This document shows positions 3,757-15,025 of a stretch of DNA of 32,000 nt, one piece after another. The notes under the pieces were generated by a model, which saw nothing but the letters and a program-made list of their open reading frames with translations, was not told the DNA's origin and did not search any database. Made by a program: the position numbers and the translations under genes. The DNA comes from an uncultured archaeon (lineage in GTDB: Archaea; Asgardarchaeota; Jordiarchaeia; Jordiarchaeales; Jordiarchaeaceae): positions 3,333-35,332 of the forward strand of contig CAZECW010000139.1 of the NCBI GenBank assembly GCA_964510585.1. Reading direction: 5' to 3'. The stretch's first letter is position 1, and each line of letters begins with the position of its first letter.

Positions 3757-4176
3757 ATGCCGAGTGTGGAAGAGCTTTTGGAGAAGGCTAAGGGTTTCTA
3801 TCCTAAACACCCAGACCTTATGAGGCACCTTGAGATAGGAGCGCTATGGGAGTATCATATTCGCCCCTTCACACTGGACAGCAACGATAAACTCATCTTC
3901 CACTTAACGAAGCTCTCCGAGGATGAAATCAGATTTGAACAGGGACCTGCACCAGAAAAGCCAGATTTAATACTTTATTTTACCGAGAACGCCATGGTGA
4001 AACTGGTCGATGAATCAAATGATGCTGACACCTATTATGAGAAGTATCGTGAAATACTCAAAAACCCCGACGTAGGAGTGGAACTAGACTACAAAATAAA
4101 TAAACCCCGCCTAAAACTCTTCAGAATGGGCTACAAAGAATGGGCTGAAACCTACAAGTTCCAAGCTTGGACCTAA
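3757..4176 (+). CDS. Hypothetical protein, possible SCP2 (sterol carrier/lipid-binding) fold
   Basis: 139 aa with a GGAGG RBS. The pattern LWEYHI / LIFHL / IRFEQG / KPDLILYFTENAMVKLV resembles SCP2 strands plus the 'PD-h-x-h...helix' segment. The fold call is pattern-based only. Confidence 0.6.
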   Translation: MPSVEELLEKAKGFYPKHPDLMRHLEIGALWEYHIRPFTLDSNDKLIFHLTKLSEDEIRFEQGPAPEKPDLILYFTENAMVKLVDESNDADTYYEKYREILKNPDVGVELDYKINKPRLKLFRMGYKEWAETYKFQAWT

Positions 4177-4706: not shown

Positions 4707-5353
4707 TTGAGTGAAGTCTTGAATAAAATTGCCAAGTCTATCGAAGAGTTGGATGGAAAAGAAGCCGAGAAATTGGTGAGGAAGGCTCTGGACGAGGGCG
4801 TTGACCCGGTTAAGATTTTGGAGGATGGAATTATAGCCGGAGTCAGAGCCATTGGAGAAAAGTTTGAAAAAAGGAGTACTTTTTAGCCGAACTTTACGAA
4901 GGCGGTGAAATAGCGGAGAAACTGGTGGAAATTGTGGGACCTAGGATACCCAAGGAGGCAGGTGGGGCACGCAAGAGAGTGGTTATTGGCACAGTGCACG
5001 GAGACCTACATGATATAGGTAAGAATCTTGTAGCTATGCAGCTTACCATGGCGGGCTTTGAAGTTAGAGATCTAGGCATAGATGTTCCCGCAATGAGATT
5101 CATCGAGGAGGCGGAGAACTTCAAAGCAGATATTATAGCTATGTCATCTCTCTTGATGGCCACAATGATGAATATGGCAGAAGTTGTGAACCTTCTAAAA
5201 GAGCTTGGCTTGAGAGACAAATACAAAGTACTGGTGGGCGGTGGACCCATAAATCCCGCTTTAGCTCAAATGTTTGGAGCAGACGGATACGCTGAGAACG
5301 CTGTGGAAGCGGTAAAGGTCGCCAAAAAGTTGGTGGGCTTAGGAGGTGCTTAA
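4707..5353 (+). pseudogene. Methyltransferase cognate corrinoid protein (MtmC/MtbC-like), interrupted by a 1-nt frameshift in an A6 run at 4867-4872
   Basis: TTG 4707 (RBS AGAGGTGG) reads MSEVLNKIAKSIEELDGKEAEKLVRKALDEGVDPVKILEDGIIAGVRAIGEKFEK (B12 cap domain) and then stops at TAG 4884-4886. The -1 frame continues KEYFLAELYEGGEIAEKLVEIVGP...GTVHGDLHDIGKNLV (DxHxxG)...SSLL...VGGG. One extra A gives a normal 215-aa protein. This could be a sequencing error rather than a true pseudogene. Confidence 0.85.
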
Positions 5354-5356
5354 AAA

Positions 5357-6727
5357 ATGGTTAGAATAAAAGACATACAGGAAAGAGCTCTAACAGGACC
5401 AGTTATGAAGGAGAGAGAATATGATAAAATGCTTTCCAAAAGGGTTCGCGAATTAGTAAAAGACTACGACATAAAATTTGACATGAACCAGATTATTCCA
5501 GATGACAGTGTGGCTGACGATGTTTTCAAAGCAGGATTCGACCTCCTAATAGACGTAGGCATCTACCATCTGGACACTAACAGGAATATAAAATTCACAG
5601 AGAACGAAATAAAAGAGATGATTAAAAGCCGTCCCAGTGAGGTAAAATTCGGAACCGGCAAAGACCAAATAACAATCAAGAATAGAAAACCCGAGGAAAA
5701 GACGAAACCAGTGATAACCACTGGAGGAGGCATTCTCAGCGAAGACATGTTCCTCCCGATAGTAAAATCCTGCGCGCAAGAACCTACATGTCAGGGAATT
5801 AACGGCTTCAGCTTAATTAGCGCATGGGGCCTAGATAACAAAACGGGAACTCCGGGGGAAATTATGTGTGCCATAGCTGAGGGATTATGGAACAGGGAAG
5901 CTGTAAAAACCGTAGGAAAACCAGGTCTTTATATAGGCTTAGCAGGGGCTAGCGCACTATCACCCGCAGGAGCCATAGCAGCCTTCCACCCTGACGGGTA
6001 CACCAAAGAAAACGCGCAGATACCCATACACCTCTTCAACGAACTCAAACTAACTTGGAGCAGATTCATACTAGCCACATATGCTCGACTAAACGGTATA
6101 GTGCCCTGGACTTCTTACGGTGCGGCCATAGGACTCCTCTTCCGAAATTCTGAGGAGGCATCTGTAGGAGCCATCGCCGCTCTGCTAGCGGAACTAGCCT
6201 ATGGGCAGGGGTCCCTCTGTATGGGCGGCGGCATGGGATCAGATGGCATGGTAATGAGAAGAGAGTCCCTAGCCTCGGGTGCTACTTGCACGTTAGCTTT
6301 GACTAATAATCTTCATGTCCCTGTGGGAGGGGTGGGCGGCGGTGGCGGTTACGCAGGACCTTGCACCGAGATGCGTGTTTACGAAATCGCAATAATAAAT
6401 CTGATGAGTGTAGCATCAGGAGCCGGCTGGCTCTGGTACAGTGGAACTCTAAGAACATTGATTAACTACTGCACTGGTATGGAGGGTAGAATAATGGGTG
6501 AAACAGCCCGCGCCATAGCTGGAATGAAAAGAGCCGACGCCAACGAATTAATAAATAAACTCTTACCCAAAATAGAAGACAAGGAAAACCCGGAAAAAGC
6601 ACCTATAGGTAAGAGCTTCATGGAATGCTATGATATCAAAACCTTAACTCCATCAAAAGAATACACAGACCTCTACGCAAGGGTAAAAAAGGAACTCATA
6701 GATTACGGCATAGAGTACGAGTACTAA
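5357..6727 (+). CDS. mtmB: Monomethylamine methyltransferase MtmB-family protein without pyrrolysine; substrate unknown
   Basis: 456 aa, uninterrupted. FNELK, AGPCTEM, TGMEGRIMGETARAIAG and APIGKSFMECYDIKTLTPSKEY match MtmB segments. There is no in-frame TAG at the Pyl site (GKPGLYIGLAG versus GRPGMGV-O-GP). It lies 3 nt after the corrinoid gene. The symbol denotes family only. Confidence 0.85.
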   Translation: MVRIKDIQERALTGPVMKEREYDKMLSKRVRELVKDYDIKFDMNQIIPDDSVADDVFKAGFDLLIDVGIYHLDTNRNIKFTENEIKEMIKSRPSEVKFGTGKDQITIKNRKPEEKTKPVITTGGGILSEDMFLPIVKSCAQEPTCQGINGFSLISAWGLDNKTGTPGEIMCAIAEGLWNREAVKTVGKPGLYIGLAGASALSPAGAIAAFHPDGYTKENAQIPIHLFNELKLTWSRFILATYARLNGIVPWTSYGAAIGLLFRNSEEASVGAIAALLAELAYGQGSLCMGGGMGSDGMVMRRESLASGATCTLALTNNLHVPVGGVGGGGGYAGPCTEMRVYEIAIINLMSVASGAGWLWYSGTLRTLINYCTGMEGRIMGETARAIAGMKRADANELINKLLPKIEDKENPEKAPIGKSFMECYDIKTLTPSKEYTDLYARVKKELIDYGIEYEY

Positions 6728-6760
6728 TCGCGCTCCAGCAATCCAAAACTTACACACATC

Positions 6761-6773
6761 CACCTCTTTTTTT
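6761..6773 (+). terminator. Probable archaeal oligo-T terminator after the corrinoid-mtmB operon
   Basis: CACCTC-T7 about 35 nt after the stop. The same pyrimidine-rich + T6-7 pattern follows the stops at 11841, 18956, 22352 and 24087. Confidence 0.45.
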
Positions 6774-7177
6774 GCGGTATAATCCCCAAATTAGATTTGT
6801 TAGAAAATATAAATCTTTACAAAAATAGGCCTCGCCTGAATCCAAACTATTAATATATGTAAAAGTTTTTGGTGTAACTCTCTTAATGTTTGAATTTGTG
6901 GAGGGTTTTTTACACCTTTTTCTAAAAGTCGTTTTTTCCTCCTTTTTGCTCAAAGAAACCATTTTATGTCTTCTTTCATAGAGAGACTTTAACTCAAAAA
7001 ACCCAAACATCCTCCAGTTGAACACATTCCAAAAAAGACTTTTTACACGCCCTCATAAGTTCTAGAAATTGATATAAGTTTGGTGCCCTGTCTCTAAACT
7101 TAAAGAATTGTTAACCAGGCATCGTCGCAAACCAATTCCCAAAATTTACCTTGAAAATCAAGGAAGGGTAATATTGT

Positions 7178-9175
7178 TTGGAGGACTCGAAAATGTTGTT
7201 GTTTGACCCCATCAAGATTGGAAGCATGGAGATAAGAAATAGAATATTTTTACCAGCAATGCATTTGGGCTACTGTGTGAATAACTTTGTGGATGATAGG
7301 ATTGTTAATTTCTATGAGGCCCGTGCTAAGGGTGGTGCAGGCTTGATTATGGTTGGCGGCTGCGCCACTGAGCCTCTGGGAACCGGGTTGCCCAACATGA
7401 TGAGTTTAAGTGATGACAAATATATTCCGGGTATGAGGAGATTGGCTGAAGCTATAAAGAGGCATGGATCTAAAGCTGCTGTTCAACTTTTACATGTGGG
7501 TCCACAGACTTGGACTTTTATTCTTGGCACTCAGCCTGTTTCTGCCTCAGCCATAAAGTGTAAGCTGACTGGTGAAATGCCCCGGGAGATGACTATTCAG
7601 GAAATTGAGCAGAGTGTTGAGAATTTTGCTTTAGCGGCAAAGAGGGCTAAGAGTGCTGGATTTGATGCTGTTGAAATCATTGGGGGAGTGGGCTATTTGG
7701 TGGCTCGCTTCTTATCGCCAAGAACCAATGTGCGAAAGGATCGGTATGGGGGAAGCGTTCAGGGAAGAGTCAGGTTTGCAGTAGAGATTATTGAACGTAT
7801 TAAGGAGAAGTTGGGCAGAGACTTTCCCGTGATTTTTAAGCTTTCTGGCGACGAGTTTATGGAGGGTGGAAACACCATTGAAGAAACTAAGGTTATCGCA
7901 AAGGAACTTGAGAAGGCTGGTGCCGACTGTTTTAATGTGGCTGTGGCTTGGCATGAATCCCCTGTCCCTCAAATCACCATGAATGTTCCAAGGGGCGCCT
8001 TTGCCTATCTCGCCGAGAAGGTTCGCGAGGTGGTAAGCGTCCCTGTTATTGCAGGAAACAGGATTAACGACCCCCTTGTTGCTGAGAAGATTTTGAGGGA
8101 GGGCAAGGCAGACATCATCTCTCTAGGTAGAGCGCTCATCGCGGATCCCGAATTTCCAATAAAGGCTAAGGAGGGAAGATTTGCGGAGATCAGGAAATGC
8201 TTGGCGTGTAACCAGGGATGCTTTGATCATGTATTCTCAGCTCAACCAGTGGAGTGCCTAGTCAACCCTGATGTTTCAAGGGAAGCGGAGTACCAAATTA
8301 AACCTGCAGCAAAAAGAAAGAAAGTTTTGATTGCTGGAGGCGGTCCTGCAGGTATGGAGACTGCAAGAGTTGCTAAACTTAGGGGACATGATGTAACCCT
8401 CTATGAGAAGAGCGACAGGCTTGGAGGACAGCTGAGCTGGGCTGCGGTTCCTAAGGAAAGAAGGGAATTGGGAAACCTTGTAGATTACCTAGCGTACCAG
8501 ATGCAGTTACTAAATGTTAATGTAGTTTTGGGGAAGGAGGTTACCCCAGAAGTTGTTAAACAGTTGAACCCGGATGTACTGGTTGTAGCCACGGGAGTAA
8601 ACTGGATTGTACCGGATATACCGGGCGTTGATAGGCCCAATGTGGTAATGGCTCTAGACGTATTGGCTGATAGGGTGTCCGTTGGCAAAAAAGTGGTAAT
8701 TATTGGAGGTGGTGGCGTGGGCTGCGAAACCGGGCTTTACCTTGCGGAGAAGGGTTCCATAGATGCAGAAACCATGCTCTTCCTTGTTAAATGGGGAGCT
8801 ATGGATCTTGAGAGCGCCTACAAGCTGACTAAGAGCAATAAGGAAATTGTGATAGTGGAAATGCTGGACAAAATGGGACAGGATATTGGGGGTAGTACTC
8901 GCTGGACAATACTGAAAAGCCTTTCCCAAAGTGGAGTGAAAATGCTAACAAACTCCAAGGTAAAAGAAATAACCGAGAAGGGTGTAAAGCTGGATAATGG
9001 GGATGTCTTGGAAGCCGACACCGTTGTTATAGCAGTTGGATCAAAGCAGAACAATGAACTCTTCGAAAAAATGAGGGGCAAAGTCCCAGAAATCTATGCG
9101 GTGGGAGACTGCGTAACTCCCAGAAAAGCCATGGACGCAATGCACGAAGCGGCAGCAGTAGCCAGAAAAATATAA
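7178..9175 (+). CDS. fadH: NADH:flavin oxidoreductase, 2,4-dienoyl-CoA reductase (FadH) type: OYE barrel + [4Fe-4S] + FAD/NAD(P) domain
   Basis: GYLVARFLSPRTNVRKDRYGGS carries the FadH Tyr. WHESPVPQITMNVPRGAF matches FadH WHEARIPTI...VPRGAF. CLACNQGC...C is the cluster motif; GGGPAG and GGGGVG are dinucleotide motifs. The start may be ATG 7193. Confidence 0.82.
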   Translation: MEDSKMLLFDPIKIGSMEIRNRIFLPAMHLGYCVNNFVDDRIVNFYEARAKGGAGLIMVGGCATEPLGTGLPNMMSLSDDKYIPGMRRLAEAIKRHGSKAAVQLLHVGPQTWTFILGTQPVSASAIKCKLTGEMPREMTIQEIEQSVENFALAAKRAKSAGFDAVEIIGGVGYLVARFLSPRTNVRKDRYGGSVQGRVRFAVEIIERIKEKLGRDFPVIFKLSGDEFMEGGNTIEETKVIAKELEKAGADCFNVAVAWHESPVPQITMNVPRGAFAYLAEKVREVVSVPVIAGNRINDPLVAEKILREGKADIISLGRALIADPEFPIKAKEGRFAEIRKCLACNQGCFDHVFSAQPVECLVNPDVSREAEYQIKPAAKRKKVLIAGGGPAGMETARVAKLRGHDVTLYEKSDRLGGQLSWAAVPKERRELGNLVDYLAYQMQLLNVNVVLGKEVTPEVVKQLNPDVLVVATGVNWIVPDIPGVDRPNVVMALDVLADRVSVGKKVVIIGGGGVGCETGLYLAEKGSIDAETMLFLVKWGAMDLESAYKLTKSNKEIVIVEMLDKMGQDIGGSTRWTILKSLSQSGVKMLTNSKVKEITEKGVKLDNGDVLEADTVVIAVGSKQNNELFEKMRGKVPEIYAVGDCVTPRKAMDAMHEAAAVARKI

Positions 9176-9288
9176 ATTACAGATAGTAGGCAGAACTCTT
9201 CCAAAGCCAAAATACCTTTGCAGATATTTTGGGGTTGAAGCTGTAAAGTTACCCAAAGATTAATATCTATGAAGGCATTAATAACCCA

Positions 9289-9477
9289 CTTATAACCATA
9301 TTTCGCAGATTCTGCGAAGCTATTTGGGCGATTGTGATTCTCCCGTGTGGTTTTGGGTGTGTGGCTGCGCTTTTCACCAACCCCACACCCTCATTTTCTC
9401 AAAAACTGGAAGCGTGGTAATAAAAGCTTTGCAACTCCACTAAAGAATTCCCAAATCTGCGAAAAATGGGTTATAAG
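9289..9477. repeat. 189-bp intergenic segment bounded by imperfect 23/24-bp inverted repeats
   Basis: 9289-9311 CTTATAACCATATTTCGCAGATT versus the reverse complement of 9454-9477, CTTATAACCCATTTTTCGCAGATT (22 matches, 1 mismatch, 1 gap). A perfect palindrome TTCGCAGA-T-TCTGCGAA lies at 9302-9318. Confidence 0.7.
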
Positions 9478-9501
9478 AGTTAATTTCGGAGCGTGAAATA
9501 T

Positions 9502-10452
9502 GTGTCTGTCTTAACTGCTTGGAGAGAAAAATGTATCATAACCTGTGCCCTTACGGGATCCGCTACTTTTCCCTCCCAGACACCCTACCTACCCATAACA
9601 CCGGACCAGATATCTGACGAGGCAAAAAAGGCCTGCGACGCAGGCGCAGCAGTAGTCCACGTCCACGTGAGAGACCCCAAAACCGGCATGCCCACAGCCG
9701 ACCTAGGCGTGTGGAGAGAAACCCTAACAAAAATAAAGTCAAAAACAGACGTAATAGTCTGCTGCACAACAGGAGGGGGAGCCGGAATGACCCCCGAACA
9801 AAGAATAGCGGTGGTTCCAGAATTCAAGCCAGAAATGTGCTCCTTCAACGTGGAATCAATGAACTTCGCAGTATTCCCCATAGCGGAAAGAATTAAGGAG
9901 TGGAAATATCCCTGGGAAAAACCAGTAGTGGAAATGAGTAAGGGACTGATTTTCCAGAACAGCTTCAAAGACCTCGAAGTATTCTCCAAAACAATGTATG
10001 AAAACAACGTTAAACCCGAACTTGAGATTTATAGCACGAGTGGCATCTGGAATGCGGGAGCCATGCTCCGCTTTGGATGGCTTAAATTCCCCCTGCACAT
10101 GCAATTCGTCCTAGGGGTGCTCGGGGGCACAGGAAACACACCATGGGAACTAATACACTTCTATGACGAAGCCGCCCGACTCTTCGGCACGCAAAACTTC
10201 ACCTGGTCAGTGATCGGAATCGGGTACCCAAGAGAGTTCCACTTGGGAGCCATGGCGGCAATAATGGGAGGACATATAAGAGTTGGGCTAGAGGACAACA
10301 TTTACATAGCCCATAGAGAGTTGGCCAAGAGCAATGCAGAACTAGTCGCCAAGATGGTTAGGATAGTCAATGAACTGGGAAGAGATGTGGCCTCACCTGA
10401 CGAAGCAAGGAAAATGCTGGGACTAAAAGGACTGGACAAGGTCAACTACTAA
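9502..10452 (+). CDS. Beta-keto acid cleavage enzyme (BKACE/DUF849, 3-keto-5-aminohexanoate cleavage family), paralogue 1
   Basis: IITCALTG, Zn-binding HVH, TTGG and HIRVGLEDN (Glu ligand/Asp). Start GTG 9502 chosen because it aligns with the paralogue's ATG; the track starts at 9493. Confidence 0.92.
   Translation: MSVLTAWREKCIITCALTGSATFPSQTPYLPITPDQISDEAKKACDAGAAVVHVHVRDPKTGMPTADLGVWRETLTKIKSKTDVIVCCTTGGGAGMTPEQRIAVVPEFKPEMCSFNVESMNFAVFPIAERIKEWKYPWEKPVVEMSKGLIFQNSFKDLEVFSKTMYENNVKPELEIYSTSGIWNAGAMLRFGWLKFPLHMQFVLGVLGGTGNTPWELIHFYDEAARLFGTQNFTWSVIGIGYPREFHLGAMAAIMGGHIRVGLEDNIYIAHRELAKSNAELVAKMVRIVNELGRDVASPDEARKMLGLKGLDKVNY
9564..9770 (+). repeat. 207-bp near-identical tract shared with 10935-11141
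   Basis: Codon-by-codon comparison of the two BKACE genes shows a single mismatch (9678 C versus 11049 T) in 207 nt. Confidence 0.95.
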
Positions 10453-10488
10453 AAAAACAGCCGCCTTTCTTCTTTTTTGCTGTTTTTT
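10452..10488 (+). terminator. Hairpin/oligo-T terminator after BKACE paralogue 1
   Basis: AAAAAACAGC (10452-10461) and GCTGTTTTTT (10479-10488) form a perfect 10-bp inverted repeat around a pyrimidine-rich loop, immediately at the stop codon. Confidence 0.6.
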
Positions 10489-10872
10489 ATGAAAACTGTC
10501 AGTATTTAGAACAACAGTTGAAAGTCTTTTTGGAGGCGGAGGCTCTACAAACATGTCGCAATAAAAGCAAAACCCATGGTGTTCTTACCAGTTTTCCTAT
10601 TGAAGGGATTAGTCTGAAGCCCAATTAATTCCTATAAGAGTTCTCTGATGCAACCCCTAATTTTCCATACAAGCGTCTTATGAAACCATCACTCTTGCCC
10701 TGTTGATAGATTTTACAATTCGCGTAGAACAAGGGGGAAGAGATTTTCGGGTAATGCGGTGAATGATTACTTTGAGGAGCCAGCAAAAGTTCGATGCAAG
10801 GTACCAATAAATTAATATTTGTCATATTCTTCTAAAAATATGGGTTGGAAGAATTTTTGGAGGTGTGAAGAA

Positions 10873-11841
10873 ATGTCATTTTTAACTGCTTGGAGAGAAA
10901 AATGTATCATAACCTGTGCCCTAACTGGGTCAGTTACTTTTCCCTCCCAGACACCCTACCTACCCATAACACCGGACCAGATATCTGACGAGGCAAAAAA
11001 GGCCTGCGACGCAGGCGCAGCAGTAGTCCACGTCCACGTGAGAGACCCTAAAACCGGCATGCCCACAGCCGACCTAGGCGTGTGGAGAGAAACCCTAACA
11101 AAAATAAAGTCAAAAACAGACGTAATAGTCTGCTGCACAACTGGGGGAGGAGCAGGAATGACAGCCCAGCAGAGAATAGCGGTGGTTCCAGAATTCAAGC
11201 CAGAAATGTGCTCCTTCAACGTAGAATCAATGAACTTTTCAGTGTTCCCACTCGCAGAGAGAATAAAGGAGTGGAAAACTGACTGGGAAAAGCCCCTAGT
11301 AGAGTGGAGTAAGGGAATGATCTTCCAGAACTCATTTGCAGACCTTGAAGTGTTTGCCAAAACTATGTATGAAAACAATGTTAAACCGGAACTTGAGATT
11401 TACAGCAGCAGTGGCGTCTGGAACGCGGGTGCTATGCTCCGCTTTGGATGGCTTAAATTCCCCCTACACATACAATTCGTCCTAGGAGTATTGGGAGGAA
11501 CGGGCAACACACCCTTTGAATTGATGCACCTTTACAACGAGGCTAGCCGACTCTTCGGCACACAAAACTTCACTTGGTCAGTAATCGGAATAGGATACCC
11601 GCAAGAATTCCACCTAGGAGCGATGGCGGCAATAATGGGAGGCCACATAAGAGTGGGCATGGAAGACAACATTTATGTGGGTTACGACCCCGTGAAGAAG
11701 GAGCGTATACTTGCAAAGAGCAACGCTGAACTGGTTGCAAAGATGGTTAAGATAGTTAACGAATTGGGAAGAGATGTAGCTTCACCTGACGAAGCAAGGA
11801 AAATGTTGGGACTAAAGGGATTAGACAAGGTCAACTACTAA
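10873..11841 (+). CDS. Beta-keto acid cleavage enzyme (BKACE/DUF849), paralogue 2
   Basis: Same motifs (HVH, HIRVGMEDN) and a GGAGGTG RBS before ATG 10873 (track starts at 10819). About 24 substitutions plus a 6-aa insertion relative to paralogue 1, by hand count. Confidence 0.92.
   Translation: MSFLTAWREKCIITCALTGSVTFPSQTPYLPITPDQISDEAKKACDAGAAVVHVHVRDPKTGMPTADLGVWRETLTKIKSKTDVIVCCTTGGGAGMTAQQRIAVVPEFKPEMCSFNVESMNFSVFPLAERIKEWKTDWEKPLVEWSKGMIFQNSFADLEVFAKTMYENNVKPELEIYSSSGVWNAGAMLRFGWLKFPLHIQFVLGVLGGTGNTPFELMHLYNEASRLFGTQNFTWSVIGIGYPQEFHLGAMAAIMGGHIRVGMEDNIYVGYDPVKKERILAKSNAELVAKMVKIVNELGRDVASPDEARKMLGLKGLDKVNY
10935..11141 (+). repeat. Second copy of the 207-bp tract
   Basis: Offset of 1371 nt from 9564-9770; one mismatch. 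Confidence 0.95.
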
Positions 11842-11911
11842 AGACAATATACGCTCCCCCTTTTTTATTGGTAAAAAAAGAGAGTTTAATTGTTTCGAAG
11901 AAAGCCACTGA

Positions 11912-12697
11912 TTATAGTTCCCTTAGGGTTCCTTTTAGGTCTATTCGGGTTCTTATTACTTGGAGTTCTTCTTTTGTGGGTGGCTCTGTTTCTGGAACGT
12001 CATCTGGAATTATGAGTTGGAATCCAGTGTTGTTTTTAACCTCTTCGATCGATACTCCTGGGTGTACTGATTTTAGGCGCATTCTTTTGGTCTTTTCTTC
12101 GAAGTCCATTATACAGAGAGGTGTTAATACATATTTGGGGCCTCCTCCAGGTAGGCCTAGTTTTTTTCTGGAGTTTCCCCCGTCTCCCCAGCCTACGGCG
12201 GTTATGTATTCGCATTTGTCCACGAAAATCATTGGGTGGTGCCTCTCAGAGTAGATATAGTAGCGGCCCACGTAGGTTGTTATTGTTGATTGTCCAATGG
12301 CGCCTGGTCCTCGGAACATCAATTTTGGGTACTGTCCGCCAATGCCGAGCAGGTTTATGTTTCCATATTTGTCTATTTGGAGGCCTCCGAAGAAGCTGAC
12401 ATCATACCTTCTTATAGTATCCCAGAGGTGCTCATATTCTGGTACTTCTTCGCAGTATTTGAATCCAGAGTAGTCTGTGACGAATTCAAAACTTTCTATT
12501 TGTTTCACGTCTGAGAAGTTGGCGCGGTAAAACTGTAGCCAGCGCATGTTTGGTGCGTGTGTTAGGTGTGCGAGGAGTACGCCTGCTCTACACGCGGGTA
12601 GGTTGGCTCCTATTAGTACTGTTTCGCCGTCTTTGATTTCTCGGGAGATGAAAGCAGCTAGGAGCTCTCTTATTGAGTAATCTTTGTTTCTGCTCAA
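11912..12697 (-). CDS. Class I CoA-transferase beta subunit homologue (GctB/CatJ/IpdB family)
   Basis: FFGGLQIDKYGNIN, RGPGAIG, SVHPGVSIEEVKNNTGF and TEPPTKEEL motifs; AGGTGA RBS; downstream of the alpha subunit. Confidence 0.85.
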   Translation of the reverse strand: MSRNKDYSIRELLAAFISREIKDGETVLIGANLPACRAGVLLAHLTHAPNMRWLQFYRANFSDVKQIESFEFVTDYSGFKYCEEVPEYEHLWDTIRRYDVSFFGGLQIDKYGNINLLGIGGQYPKLMFRGPGAIGQSTITTYVGRYYIYSERHHPMIFVDKCEYITAVGWGDGGNSRKKLGLPGGGPKYVLTPLCIMDFEEKTKRMRLKSVHPGVSIEEVKNNTGFQLIIPDDVPETEPPTKEELQVIRTRIDLKGTLREL

Positions 12698-12710
12698 TTT
12701 TTTTCACCTT

Positions 12711-13601
12711 CTACCATCTGTATAGAGAGAGGAGTTTCTTCATACCGATTACTTCAAGATACTCTTCGTGTGAATTTGGTTCAAGGATGTATTTTTTGAG
12801 GTACTGGTTGAAGGGCTCAGGGTTTCCCTTTGTGTAAGCCTTGGCCGCCTCCACGTACTCTTTGAGGTGTTCCCTGTCTAAATCGTAGAATCCATCGCTT
12901 GAGAAGGGGTGGGAACCATATGGGGTGGGCACCACCGCATCAACCCCGTAAATCTTTGTTAGGTGTGGGTTTCTCTTTATGTCTTCGTTAGAAACCACTT
13001 TTTCTACTTGAAAGACGCATTTTTTGGAGGCTCTCGCCATTAGAATGTCTGCGTAGGTGTTTCCCACGTACTGTATGTTGCCATATGGGTCGCTCCAGGA
13101 TGCGTGAAGTATGGCTACGTCGAGTTCCAGTGCGGGGACAGCTAGCAATGTTTGTCCCTTTATGGGGTCTTGGAAGTATTTTAGATCGGGGTTAATGTCG
13201 GGCAGGCAGGTGCCAACGCCGCCTAGCCAGGGTAGGAAAGGTAGCCCCTCGGCCGCGGCTCTTAGTGCGGTGCATAGGATTGCTTCGTCGCACTCCCACA
13301 TTTGAATGGTGCCGTCCACTACTGCTTTTCGGAAGAATGGACCTATGGGTGCGAGTGATTCTCCTCCCACGTAAGCAGTGGCCACCTTCTTTGCGACACC
13401 CGCTCCGATCATCAAGTCAATTTCTAGTCCCGCTGCGGGTGAGCCTACTACTGTCAGGTTTTTTACACCGTTCTTAATGATTTGGCGAATTATGGCCATG
13501 GGGTGATTTGCAGTTAGAAGGCCCCCGATGCCTACGGTCATACCGTCCTTTATCATTGAGGCTGCCTCTCTTACACTCATAATGACTTCTTTTCTGGTCA
13601 T
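12711..13601 (-). CDS. Class I CoA-transferase alpha subunit homologue (GctA/CatI/IpdA family)
   Basis: IKDGMTVGIGG...HPMAIIRQI, ECDEAIL...RAAAEGLPFLP, LDVAILHA..SDPYGN and VDAVV..PYGSHP motifs. Confidence 0.87.
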   Translation of the reverse strand: MTRKEVIMSVREAASMIKDGMTVGIGGLLTANHPMAIIRQIIKNGVKNLTVVGSPAAGLEIDLMIGAGVAKKVATAYVGGESLAPIGPFFRKAVVDGTIQMWECDEAILCTALRAAAEGLPFLPWLGGVGTCLPDINPDLKYFQDPIKGQTLLAVPALELDVAILHASWSDPYGNIQYVGNTYADILMARASKKCVFQVEKVVSNEDIKRNPHLTKIYGVDAVVPTPYGSHPFSSDGFYDLDREHLKEYVEAAKAYTKGNPEPFNQYLKKYILEPNSHEEYLEVIGMKKLLSLYRW

Positions 13602-13891
13602 GATAACACCAGCTTCAGATGCTGTTAAAACCCGATATGTGGAATTAGCTTATAAATAAAAGCCCAAAAAATAAAGGATAAAACTAATTTTAGTTAACTC
13701 TGATCATTTGGGACGAAATTTACCGACCGACTTCCACAAATGTCCACCGATATGGCGGAAAAGTGAACCTGTCTGGGTAGCGACCTGAATTATTTTGGTT
13801 AATTGTATGGTGTTCGGCTAATCGCTAGTGCTATTTGTGGAAAGGTTTGCATAGGATTCAGAAGTTACTCATATGGTAAAGTTTTGGCGCA

Positions 13892-15025
13892 TTATGTTTT
13901 TTGTTGTAGGGCGAGGACCGCCGCTTCTATTATTGTTTTTGTGAATTCTTCAAGTGTGAATCCTGTGTAGTCTATTTTGTTACTTTTGAAGGCTTCAACT
14001 ATGGCGTTGCTTATGGCCTTCTCGTTTTCCGCTGATATTCCTTTGAGGGCGTTAACCACTTTTTCCAGACCGTCTGCTGGGGAGAGTAGAAAGTCGCCAG
14101 TTATGAGAATGTCTCTAATCTTTTTGGTCTTGTCTATGGCTACGCTGGCGTTGATAGTTCTTTCTGACTTGTATCTGAAGGTTGCAGCCCTCCAATCGTT
14201 GGGCAGTTTACTGTACCATCTACTCTTGGAAACGCTGGTAACTACATCTTCTGCGGTGAGTTTTTTGAAGCCCTCAGTAATCATTTCTTTTTCTTCCTCG
14301 GTGAAGTTTCCGGGTGCAAATTCCATTCCCAGTTTCTGTTTCACAATGGTTAGCAAGAGATTCTTTACTTCTTCTTCAGTAGGTGTTCTGGGTGCATCCT
14401 TTTCCATGCTACCCGCATACATGGTTACGTCGCGCAACAATTTGTCCTTCAGCTTCTCCTCTGGATAAACATAATAATCTGTGAAGAACTTAACGCTGGG
14501 GGTAAGCCGGTTGATGAAGGTTCCCACCACAACCCCTTTTCCCCAAATTAGGGAAGTGCTTCCACCCAACTTTTTGTCATCTTTTCGAATGTCGCCCGGA
14601 TGACTATAGTAGGCGTCTAAAACACCCACCCTCATGAAGAGTTCTAGAACCACTTCGCCGGCCCAAATCCTCTCAGCCTCCTCCAAATTTGGAAACACGT
14701 CCGTGGTTGTCACCAGTACCGCCGCGATTTGGCCCTTTGGGGCATAGTAGGTGCCAGCTCCACTCTCCCTCCGCCCCACCAGCACACCGTCCCTTTTCAC
14801 AGCCTTGTACCTAATCTCATCCAAGTCCTCATACTTACCCAGGCTCAGTGATTCTTTACCATGAGAAACAAATATAAGCGTGTCTGGAATCTTACCCGCA
14901 TCACGCATCTTGGACAAAACATCAAAAGCCACAAGCAACTCTACACCAGACATATCAGAAACAATTAGTCTCCCCTTAGACTGAGTTCTAAACTTCTTCT
15001 CCCTTCTTTCCAACTGTTCCAACAC
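13892..15025 (-). CDS. lplA: Lipoate-protein ligase A family protein with C-terminal domain
   Basis: VGRRESGAGTYY (RRxSGGG-like), PGDI...DKKLGG (catalytic Lys) and C-terminal ILITGDFLLSP. A GGAGGTG RBS at 15038-15032 favours a start at 15025 or 15022; the track starts at 15040. Confidence 0.78.
   Translation of the reverse strand: MLEQLERREKKFRTQSKGRLIVSDMSGVELLVAFDVLSKMRDAGKIPDTLIFVSHGKESLSLGKYEDLDEIRYKAVKRDGVLVGRRESGAGTYYAPKGQIAAVLVTTTDVFPNLEEAERIWAGEVVLELFMRVGVLDAYYSHPGDIRKDDKKLGGSTSLIWGKGVVVGTFINRLTPSVKFFTDYYVYPEEKLKDKLLRDVTMYAGSMEKDAPRTPTEEEVKNLLLTIVKQKLGMEFAPGNFTEEEKEMITEGFKKLTAEDVVTSVSKSRWYSKLPNDWRAATFRYKSERTINASVAIDKTKKIRDILITGDFLLSPADGLEKVVNALKGISAENEKAISNAIVEAFKSNKIDYTGFTLEEFTKTIIEAAVLALQQKT

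Follow-up and report, generated by a model that had tools for sequence, protein, structure and literature searches.

Homologues of the monomethylamine (MMA) methyltransferase MtmB that lack pyrrolysine (Pyl) have long been known, and the tree of a 2026 study took in 1,061 of them. EmtA, a protein without the amber codon whose identity to MtmB is about 30%, methylates estradiol at C-10 (bioRxiv 10.1101/714501, PMC7448270); methylation is its physiological direction, and the reaction is reversible (PMC7448270). AbeA is the MT1-type (substrate:corrinoid) methyltransferase for the C-19 demethylation of 1-dehydrotestosterone, and works with AbeB and AbeC, the latter handing the methyl group to tetrahydrofolate (THF) (PMC11912376). 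MtqB of Methanococcoides methylutens Q3c, also Pyl-free, acts on tetramethylammonium and choline, and shows weak to trace activity on MMA (11 nmol/min/mg; PMC13044021). The gene described here, denominated MT1 below, encodes a further homologue of this kind. It lies in a stretch of 32,000 nucleotides (nt), hereafter the window, from an uncultured archaeon of the Jordiarchaeales (Asgardarchaeota; assembly GCA_964510585.1, contig CAZECW010000139.1, positions 3,333 to 35,332), directly downstream of a corrinoid protein gene. As judged from sequence comparison and structure prediction, the methyl donor of its product is probably some bulky compound, and not methylamine.

The MT1 protein and its place in the MtmB family

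The MT1 open reading frame (ORF) spans 5357-6727 on the forward strand and encodes 456 amino acids (aa), with no internal stops and no in-frame amber codon (TAG). The Pfam profile MtmB (PF05369) matches residues 3-452 with its positions 2-450 (E 3.2e-83, 280.5 bits against a cut-off of 25), and M. barkeri MtmB is the match found by HMMER in the PDB (1l2q/1nth, E 3e-53). The AlphaFold2 (AF2) model, made from 80 homologues (pLDDT 96.5, pTM 0.95), was aligned by Foldseek to the MtmB structures 1TV2, 1L2Q and 1NTH (E 3e-37, TM 0.93, rmsd 1.9 A, identity 29%), which indicates an MtmB-type TIM barrel. A preliminary description of the locus, drawn from the sequence alone, had called the gene a Pyl-free MtmB homologue, and all these data agree with it. 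Because dN/dS (the ratio of nonsynonymous to synonymous substitution rates) is 0.025-0.038 across five Jordarchaeum orthologues, the window copy included, MT1 has been under strong purifying selection. Near-identical loci (98% protein identity) come from metagenome-assembled genomes (MAGs) labelled Candidatus Jordarchaeia or Freyarchaeota. The public runs holding the stretch are hot-spring and hydrothermal metagenomes, and no RNA run is listed among them.

In the HMMER alignment with MtmB, Pyl202 (X of G-V-X-G) corresponds to Ala196 of G-L-A-G, E205 to A198, E229 to a proline and E259 to S253. MAFFT L-INS-i moves the Pyl loop by two residues, so that the Pyl position is taken by G194; the changes of E205 to A198 and of E259 to S253 are the same in both alignments. 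The Pyl equivalent of MT1 would accordingly be Ala or Gly, with a two-position ambiguity and a small residue in either case. The true Pyl-MtmB of a Methanosarcinaceae MAG (L057) has its one TAG at the position where MT1 has Ala196 or Gly194. E205, E229 and E259, reported as the catalytic acids around Pyl in MtmB (Hao et al. 2002/2004), are kept in both Pyl-MtmBs compared; a search of the paper library for their roles gave no result. The preliminary description had noted the absence of Pyl202 and listed the three acids as replaced (by A/G, P and S), and neither alignment showed the acids retained. It had also spoken of a remodelled active site. The residues are indeed replaced, but loss of E229 and E259 is common to the whole clade containing EmtA, and these glutamates are rare among non-Pyl members generally. 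MT1 keeps the signature residues of that clade; the changes of E229 to P and of E259 to S are therefore traits common with EmtA, and not a private remodelling of MT1.

The genome, 96% complete, does not seem equipped for pyrrolysine. No PylS or PylB was found in it, the best matches scoring 42 bits against a cut-off of 178 (PylS_Cterm) and 55.7 bits against a cut-off of 348 (PylB), in agreement with the report that Jordarchaeia are without Pyl (Sun et al. 2021, PMC9723677). None of the marks of a Pyl-dependent MtmB sensu stricto, namely in-frame UAG, pylS/pylB and the E205/E229/E259 set, is present in MT1 or its genome.

Homologues of MT1 were collected by an exhaustive HMMER search (E<=1e-3), which gave 917 clusters at 50% identity. 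Functions are known for three Pyl-free members, EmtA, AbeA and MtqB. Near homologues are few, with 51, 50 and 43-37% identity. Trees were made by FastTree and IQ-TREE (LG+F+G4) from a set with EmtA, Pyl-MtmB and MtqB-like proteins. MT1 and EmtA fall in one clade in both (SH-aLRT 99.8 and UFBoot 100 in IQ-TREE, 0.998-0.999 in FastTree). EmtA is represented by the proteins of Denitratisoma sp. DHT3 (P0186, that is B9N43_10325, identified as emtA in bioRxiv 10.1101/714501) and D. oestradiolicum, P0213 being the other EmtA recovered. The clade also holds EmtA-like relatives from Binatia, Deltaproteobacteria, Bryobacterales and Chloroflexota, and the second MtmB paralogue of the genome. Pyl-MtmB (L057) and the MtqB-like proteins (L059-L061, P0067) are outside; the latter, from Methanosarcinaceae and P0067, were so labelled by taxon and motif. 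The Methanosarcinaceae MAG concerned (G001, L057-L062) hosts one Pyl-MtmB with a single TAG and five Pyl-free paralogues, three of which are MtqB-like and arranged in tandem or close by.

The MT1 subclade consists of P0003 (90% identity), P0014 (51%) and P0004 (49%), and corresponds to Jordarchaeum and two metagenomic lineages. The 90% orthologue is that of Ca. Jordarchaeum madagascariense, and orthologues at that level are found only within the genus. MT1 is 32-33% identical to EmtA, 30% to Pyl-MtmB and 29-31% to the MtqB-like proteins, while EmtA-like proteins are 68-78% identical among themselves. MT1 is not an EmtA orthologue, given the different subclade and the low identity. It keeps the signatures of the clade, N-x-Q-I-x-I-H (219-225), W234, L239, P250-W251, S253, R263, Y282 and G285. 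By the trees and these residues, MT1 belongs to the EmtA-containing branch, and not to the Pyl methylamine or MtqB branch. EmtA had been named in the preliminary description as the functional Pyl-free relative; the tree with Pyl-MtmB, EmtA and other non-Pyl MtmB proteins places MT1 in its clade, but MtqB and AbeA are characterised as well.

MT1 differs from the rest of the family in its glycines. In the HMMER alignment the stretch PVGGVGGGGGYAGPCTEM (residues 322-339) replaces '...GNQYYPCAGPCTEM' of MtmB, and the MtmB segment opposite this glycine run ends '...NQYYPCAGPCTEM'. Three barrel loops (192-206, 286-300, 321-334) contain 16 glycines in 44 residues. In the same loops of 175 family members the median is 5 glycines (sd 2.2), and no count between 10 and 16 occurs; 16 is found only in MT1 and its 90% orthologue, and 10 is the value that comes next. 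MT1 is the glycine outlier of the family, and the richness is far beyond chance. Two of the runs map on predicted barrel strands (288-294 and 323-326) in the AF2 model, consistent with a wider central cavity. The preliminary description had pointed out one glycine-rich pocket segment; with three such segments lining the barrel, a bulky substrate is suggested.

The corrinoid partner gene

The start ATG of MT1 is separated by 3 nt from the stop codon of the corrinoid protein gene (Table 1), and a GGAGGTG motif is found 8 nt before it. The B12-binding domain is recognized on the 3' part of the upstream gene (E 8e-27). An oligo-T run is found 40 nt past the MT1 stop, and a 450-nt AT-rich spacer follows. 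Because of these two features downstream, and of the 3-nt gap upstream, the corrinoid protein and MT1 genes are inferred to form a two-gene unit. A corrinoid protein gene is also located upstream of the MT1 relatives at 90%, 51%, 49% and about 41% identity. In the 49% relative (L024) mtrH directly follows the MT1 homologue and an Ldh_2 dehydrogenase gene precedes; a RamA gene (fragment) adjoins the 51% relative P0014.

Table 1. Features of the MT1 locus, with positions in the window
Feature	Coordinates	Strand	Basis
139-aa Asgard-wide protein, predicted SCP2 (sterol/lipid carrier) fold	3757..4176	+	no Pfam; AF2; Foldseek
MtmC-like corrinoid protein gene (B12-binding_2 cap + B12-binding, DxHxxG motif), 1-nt deletion	4707..5353	+	sequence; Pfam; orthologues
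MT1, predicted Pyl-free MtmB-family substrate:corrinoid methyltransferase, EmtA-containing clade, glycine-rich barrel loops	5357..6727	+	Pfam PF05369, PDB, AF2, Foldseek, trees, dN/dS
Oligo-T run, likely archaeal terminator	6767..6773	+	read from sequence, inferred
FadH/NCR-type FMN + FAD flavoprotein (OYE domain + Pyr_redox_2)	7178..9175	+	Pfam; PDB 1ps9 E 3e-131, 6qkg E 3.5e-118

The deletion in the corrinoid gene is located in the run A4867-A4872. Frame 1 stops at TAG 4884-4886, and the remainder is read in another frame up to TAA 5351-5353. Intact orthologues of 215 aa are found in L023/L029, L026 and L027. The run is A7 in a close relative and GAGAAAAAG in three MAGs, and in the window it is one base shorter. 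The deletion is carried by contigs of the public runs X1 (the probable source, depth 60) and X3 (another study); X4, a 95-99% relative, has one more A, and X2 contigs break exactly at the A-run. Since contigs from both X1 and X3 have the deletion, and X4 has the additional A, the lesion is real DNA and strain-level. A programmed frameshift was considered and discarded: three relatives keep an intact frame, and the site is not one of conserved recoding. Slippage on the A-run may nonetheless occur, and by -1 it would bring back the reading F-E-K-K-E-Y of the relatives.

No UroD/MtaA, MtrH or RACo/RamA domain was found in the window, as already noted in the preliminary description. This tells little, as the genome encodes 18 UroD-family, 4 MtrH and 2 RACo/RamA proteins, all on other contigs, in addition to 2 MtmB-like, 3 Pyl-free MttB-like and about 16 small corrinoid proteins. 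Candidate MT2 methyltransferases and reductive activators of a three-component system are therefore present elsewhere in the genome.

Predicted role, paralogue cluster and alternatives

It is reasonably likely that MT1 is a Pyl-independent methyltransferase for a bulky, non-methylamine donor, feeding a route through MtrH and tetrahydromethanopterin (H4MPT). The methylated substrate would be bound in the C-terminal mouth of the TIM barrel, where MT1 would present it to the Co(I) of its corrinoid partner, the product of the gene 3 nt upstream. An MT2 encoded elsewhere in the genome would then unload the methyl-Co(III) form of this partner. MtrH-type transfer to H4MPT seems most likely, because mtrH directly follows the MT1 homologue in the 49% relative; the methyl group would next enter the Wood-Ljungdahl pathway (WLP), with RamA, also encoded elsewhere, re-reducing Co(II). 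The clade residues common with EmtA (W234, P250-W251, S253, R263, Y282 and the 219-225 motif) suggest a non-amine substrate.

Several observations weigh against this reading. AGPCTEM is retained in MT1 as in MtmB, and so is a loop some 13 residues long; both are lost in the EmtA group, where the motif is of the N-A-W-R-T-P-L type. The identity of MT1 to EmtA (32%) is close to that to Pyl-MtmB (30%). No KstD-type, SDR or emtCD gene was found beside MT1 in the window. Other members of the broad clade sit among unrelated genes (peptide ABC transporter, sensor kinase, Ldh_2), and for this reason clade membership does not fix the chemistry. The partner gene is frameshifted, and the module may be impaired unless its place is taken by another of the approximately 16 corrinoid proteins, or slippage occurs at the A-run. 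Codon 84 of the MT1 orthologue in isolate QZM_A3 (L028:475-477) is TAA, whereas the other four orthologues encode Glu there; the stop may be a genuine nonsense mutation, or come from misassembly of a scaffold termed 'curated'. Lastly, a protein query (E<=1e-20) found no MT1 homologue in G039, a genome of the same genus in one contig, 100% complete. Because of the frameshifted partner, the nonsense codon and the absence in G039, the MT1 module is to all appearances accessory and dispensable within the genus.

The strongest lead to the chemistry appears to be a gene cluster built on paralogues of MT1. In a genome of the same order (L071:4566-9340), an MtmB-like gene, with a product 37-39% identical to MT1, is adjacent to and divergent from an operon encoding a flavoprotein with the FAD_binding_2 domain, a corrinoid protein and MtrH. 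For the flavoprotein, the best PDB match is AcmB, a 3-oxosteroid delta-1-dehydrogenase (7P18, E 3e-108), followed by KstD1; overall, KstD-like proteins of the cluster match AcmB with E values of 1e-105 to 3e-108. The same cluster is found in J. madagascariense (L072:3033-8100). In the genome hosting the window it is spread over two contig ends, with the MT1 paralogue at the start of C212 (C212:3-1043, L002) and the genes for the KstD-like protein, the corrinoid protein and MtrH at that of C208 (C208:230-3545, L073). The KstD-like protein of this genome keeps Tyr, Tyr, Tyr and Gly at the positions aligned to AcmB Y118, Y363, Y536 and G540, the catalytic set of KstD1/AcmB. In a sample of 301 Asgard genomes, the KstD orthologue (81-100% identity) is confined to two families of the order, and adjoins the MtmB-like gene in 6/6 genomes carrying it. 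Like MT1, it was not found in G039 with a protein query; each of the two methyltransferase modules looks accessory in this genus.

The paralogue and MT1 reside in the same genome, fall in the same major clade and have corrinoid proteins 44% identical; the MtrH of the paralogue cluster is a candidate MT2 common to both. The two proteins are however 34-37% identical, and while the paralogue is KstD-linked and kept across two families, MT1 is genus-restricted and without such a neighbour. In Chloroflexota, the EmtA-like gene L030 is found amid a KstD-like gene, two OYE-type and two SDR genes. The KstD-linked groups, basal Asgard paralogues and Chloroflexota EmtA-like proteins, bracket the MT1 subclade in the tree. 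A steroid context extended to the whole clade was rejected, as P0017 and P0034 have no KstD-type neighbour. In the EmtA-like locus of an activated-sludge proteobacterial MAG (L035:6028-8004), upstream of emtA there is an ORF of 658 aa, whose B12-binding domains are confined to its C-terminal part (424-612); it may be a corrinoid protein with a miscalled start, or a fusion. RACo and TetR genes are divergent there, and a TonB receptor gene is located downstream.

The paralogue cluster resembles bacterial AbeABC plus a delta-1-dehydrogenase. By analogy, Jordarchaeia (Freyarchaeia) could run an archaeal counterpart of AbeABC, in which the KstD-type enzyme would make a cross-conjugated cyclic dienone, the EmtA-clade methyltransferase would move the ring methyl to the corrinoid protein with aromatisation, and MtrH would pass it to H4MPT. 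MT1 would be a second, genus-specific variant of this chemistry, its cavity widened by the glycines to admit a bulkier substrate of steroid-, terpenoid- or quinone-like type. This proposal is tentative and, taken as a whole, rather unlikely. The substrate of MT1 itself might be the ring-bound methyl of an enone- or phenol-type compound needing redox activation, which is speculative; ring-methyl chemistry is kept as a minority possibility for MT1 because other clade members have unrelated neighbours. A search of the paper library retrieved no report of this cluster, and none connecting ketosteroid dehydrogenases or Emt/Abe systems to the Asgard archaea.

Other genes flank the two-gene unit. The 139-aa protein of Table 1 has 202 homologues, nearly all Asgard, and is 43-54% identical across Loki-, Thor-, Hermod-, Hod- and Freyarchaeota. 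Its AF2 model has a pLDDT of 93.7, and the top Foldseek matches are all SCP2-type (E 8e-6 to 1e-3, TM 0.45-0.59); the family may consist of Asgard-wide lipid-binding proteins. The adjacency of this gene to the methyltransferase unit is kept in J. madagascariense, making it a conserved neighbour within the genus. On the other side, a 7.2-kb block (6728-13922) includes the gene of the FadH/NCR-type flavoprotein, which is the first, tandem BKACE genes and a CoA-transferase pair. The block is found in three sister strains and is precisely missing in J. madagascariense, in which an LplA-like gene adjoins the MT1 stop. The indel comprises a complete catabolic module. Because the whole block is absent in that species, the flavoprotein is probably a unit separate from MT1. 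A coupling of the flavoprotein with MT1 was rejected: its identity to the two OYE-type proteins encoded beside the Chloroflexota EmtA-like gene is only 38-41%, its best PDB matches are FadH and naphthoyl-CoA reductase, and the oligo-T run, the 450-nt spacer and the absence of the block in J. madagascariense all count against it. For the thiolase-like, DUF35 and CoA-transferase neighbours a role specific to steroids finds no support, their best PDB matches being generic (4yzo, benzoylsuccinyl-CoA thiolase, archaeal thiolase, and GctA, which matches as well as IpdA or better).

The BKACE genes, 2.7 kb downstream of MT1, bear on an alternative role, that of a demethylase of quaternary or other amines like MtqB or the MttB-type betaine demethylases, conveying osmolyte methyls to the Wood-Ljungdahl pathway. 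The BKACE family reportedly includes a dehydrocarnitine cleavage enzyme (Bastard et al. 2014). Freyarchaeia/Jordarchaeia are moreover predicted quaternary-amine methylotrophs, and MtqB is a Pyl-free MtmB homologue with demonstrated amine function (PMC13044021). This role is nonetheless unlikely: the MtqB-like proteins L059-L061 and P0067 fall outside the MT1 clade (99.8/100), the pocket loops of MT1 are rich in Gly/Ala in place of the Met/Cys/aromatic set reported for MtqB, and J. madagascariense lacks the BKACE block and keeps the corrinoid-MT1 pair.

It is also unlikely, and to a similar degree, that the module is a decaying or inactive remnant in this strain, as the deletion in the partner gene (in X1, at depth 60, and in X3), the TAA in QZM_A3 and the lack of an orthologue in G039 could suggest. 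MT1 is intact here, and the dN/dS of about 0.03 across the genus includes this copy. The lesions differ from each other, and are recent and strain-specific; as X2 contigs break at the A-run, both alleles may coexist, and other corrinoid proteins could substitute for the impaired one.

MT1 might alternatively work as EmtA does, and open a catabolic pathway by methylating a phenol-like acceptor at a carbon or oxygen nucleophile, with methyl-cobalamin as the donor. It belongs to the clade of EmtA, physiologically methylating although reversible (PMC7448270), has no MT2 gene in its operon, and lies close to genes for CoA-ester catabolism. Such a direction is improbable in this organism, for which the predicted lifestyle is that of an anaerobic methylotroph resembling acetogens, with H4MPT/WLP and numerous MT2s of the MtrH/UroD types (PMC9723677). 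Moreover, mtrH is directly downstream in the closest relative with a known context, which points to demethylation.

That MT1 is a true MMA methyltransferase without pyrrolysine is very improbable, since family membership and the trace MMA activity of MtqB are countered by the replacement of the Pyl position and of all three neighbouring glutamates and by a location outside the Pyl-MtmB branch, and physiological use of MMA is not known for any Pyl-free enzyme. The preliminary description had considered methylamine activation unlikely, which is a reasonable reading, although Pyl-free MtqB is still weakly active on MMA (PMC13044021).

Comparison with known systems

Pyl-free MtmB homologues are an already known class, and MT1 is new as an unusually glycine-lined Asgard member of the EmtA-containing branch. 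It shows that this branch extends into Asgard archaea, defines residues that mark it, and provides an extreme variant of the pocket. MT1 has the fold and length of M. barkeri MtmB (1L2Q/1NTH), its AGPCTEM motif, and the same arrangement with a corrinoid protein gene. In contrast to MtmB, MT1 has no UAG/Pyl and has E205/E229/E259 replaced, the genome has no Pyl machinery, and the two proteins are on different branches of the tree.

MtqB and MT1 are both Pyl-free MtmB homologues with a cognate corrinoid protein. They differ in clade, MT1 has about 29-31% identity to the MtqB-like proteins of the Methanosarcinaceae MAG, and it does not have the Met/Cys/aromatic pocket. MtqB shows that departures from methylamine chemistry have occurred more than once in the MtmB family. 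Chloromethane CdmB was excluded from the relevant systems, being a UroD-family enzyme.

EmtA and AbeA resemble MT1 more closely. All are Pyl-free MtmB-family TIM barrels with an MtmC-like corrinoid partner, and RamA-type activation is expected for them; AbeA (Phosphitispora sp. TUW77) is likened to MT1 by its description. EmtA further shares with MT1 the clade (99.8/100), W234, P250-W251, S253, R263, Y282 and N-x-Q-I-x-I-H. MT1 is distinguishable from EmtA by the 32% identity, the separate subclade, the AGPCTEM motif and loop of about 13 residues, and the three glycine-rich barrel segments. Unlike the EmtA and AbeA loci, that of MT1 is archaeal, from hot springs, and has no KstD, SDR or emtCD gene beside the methyltransferase gene. 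The link of an EmtA-clade methyltransferase with a KstD homologue, a corrinoid protein and MtrH, seen in the paralogue cluster, leads to a testable hypothesis of anaerobic aromatising C-demethylation in archaea; if it is true, the methylotrophy of non-methanogenic archaea would extend to methyl donors of a new class.

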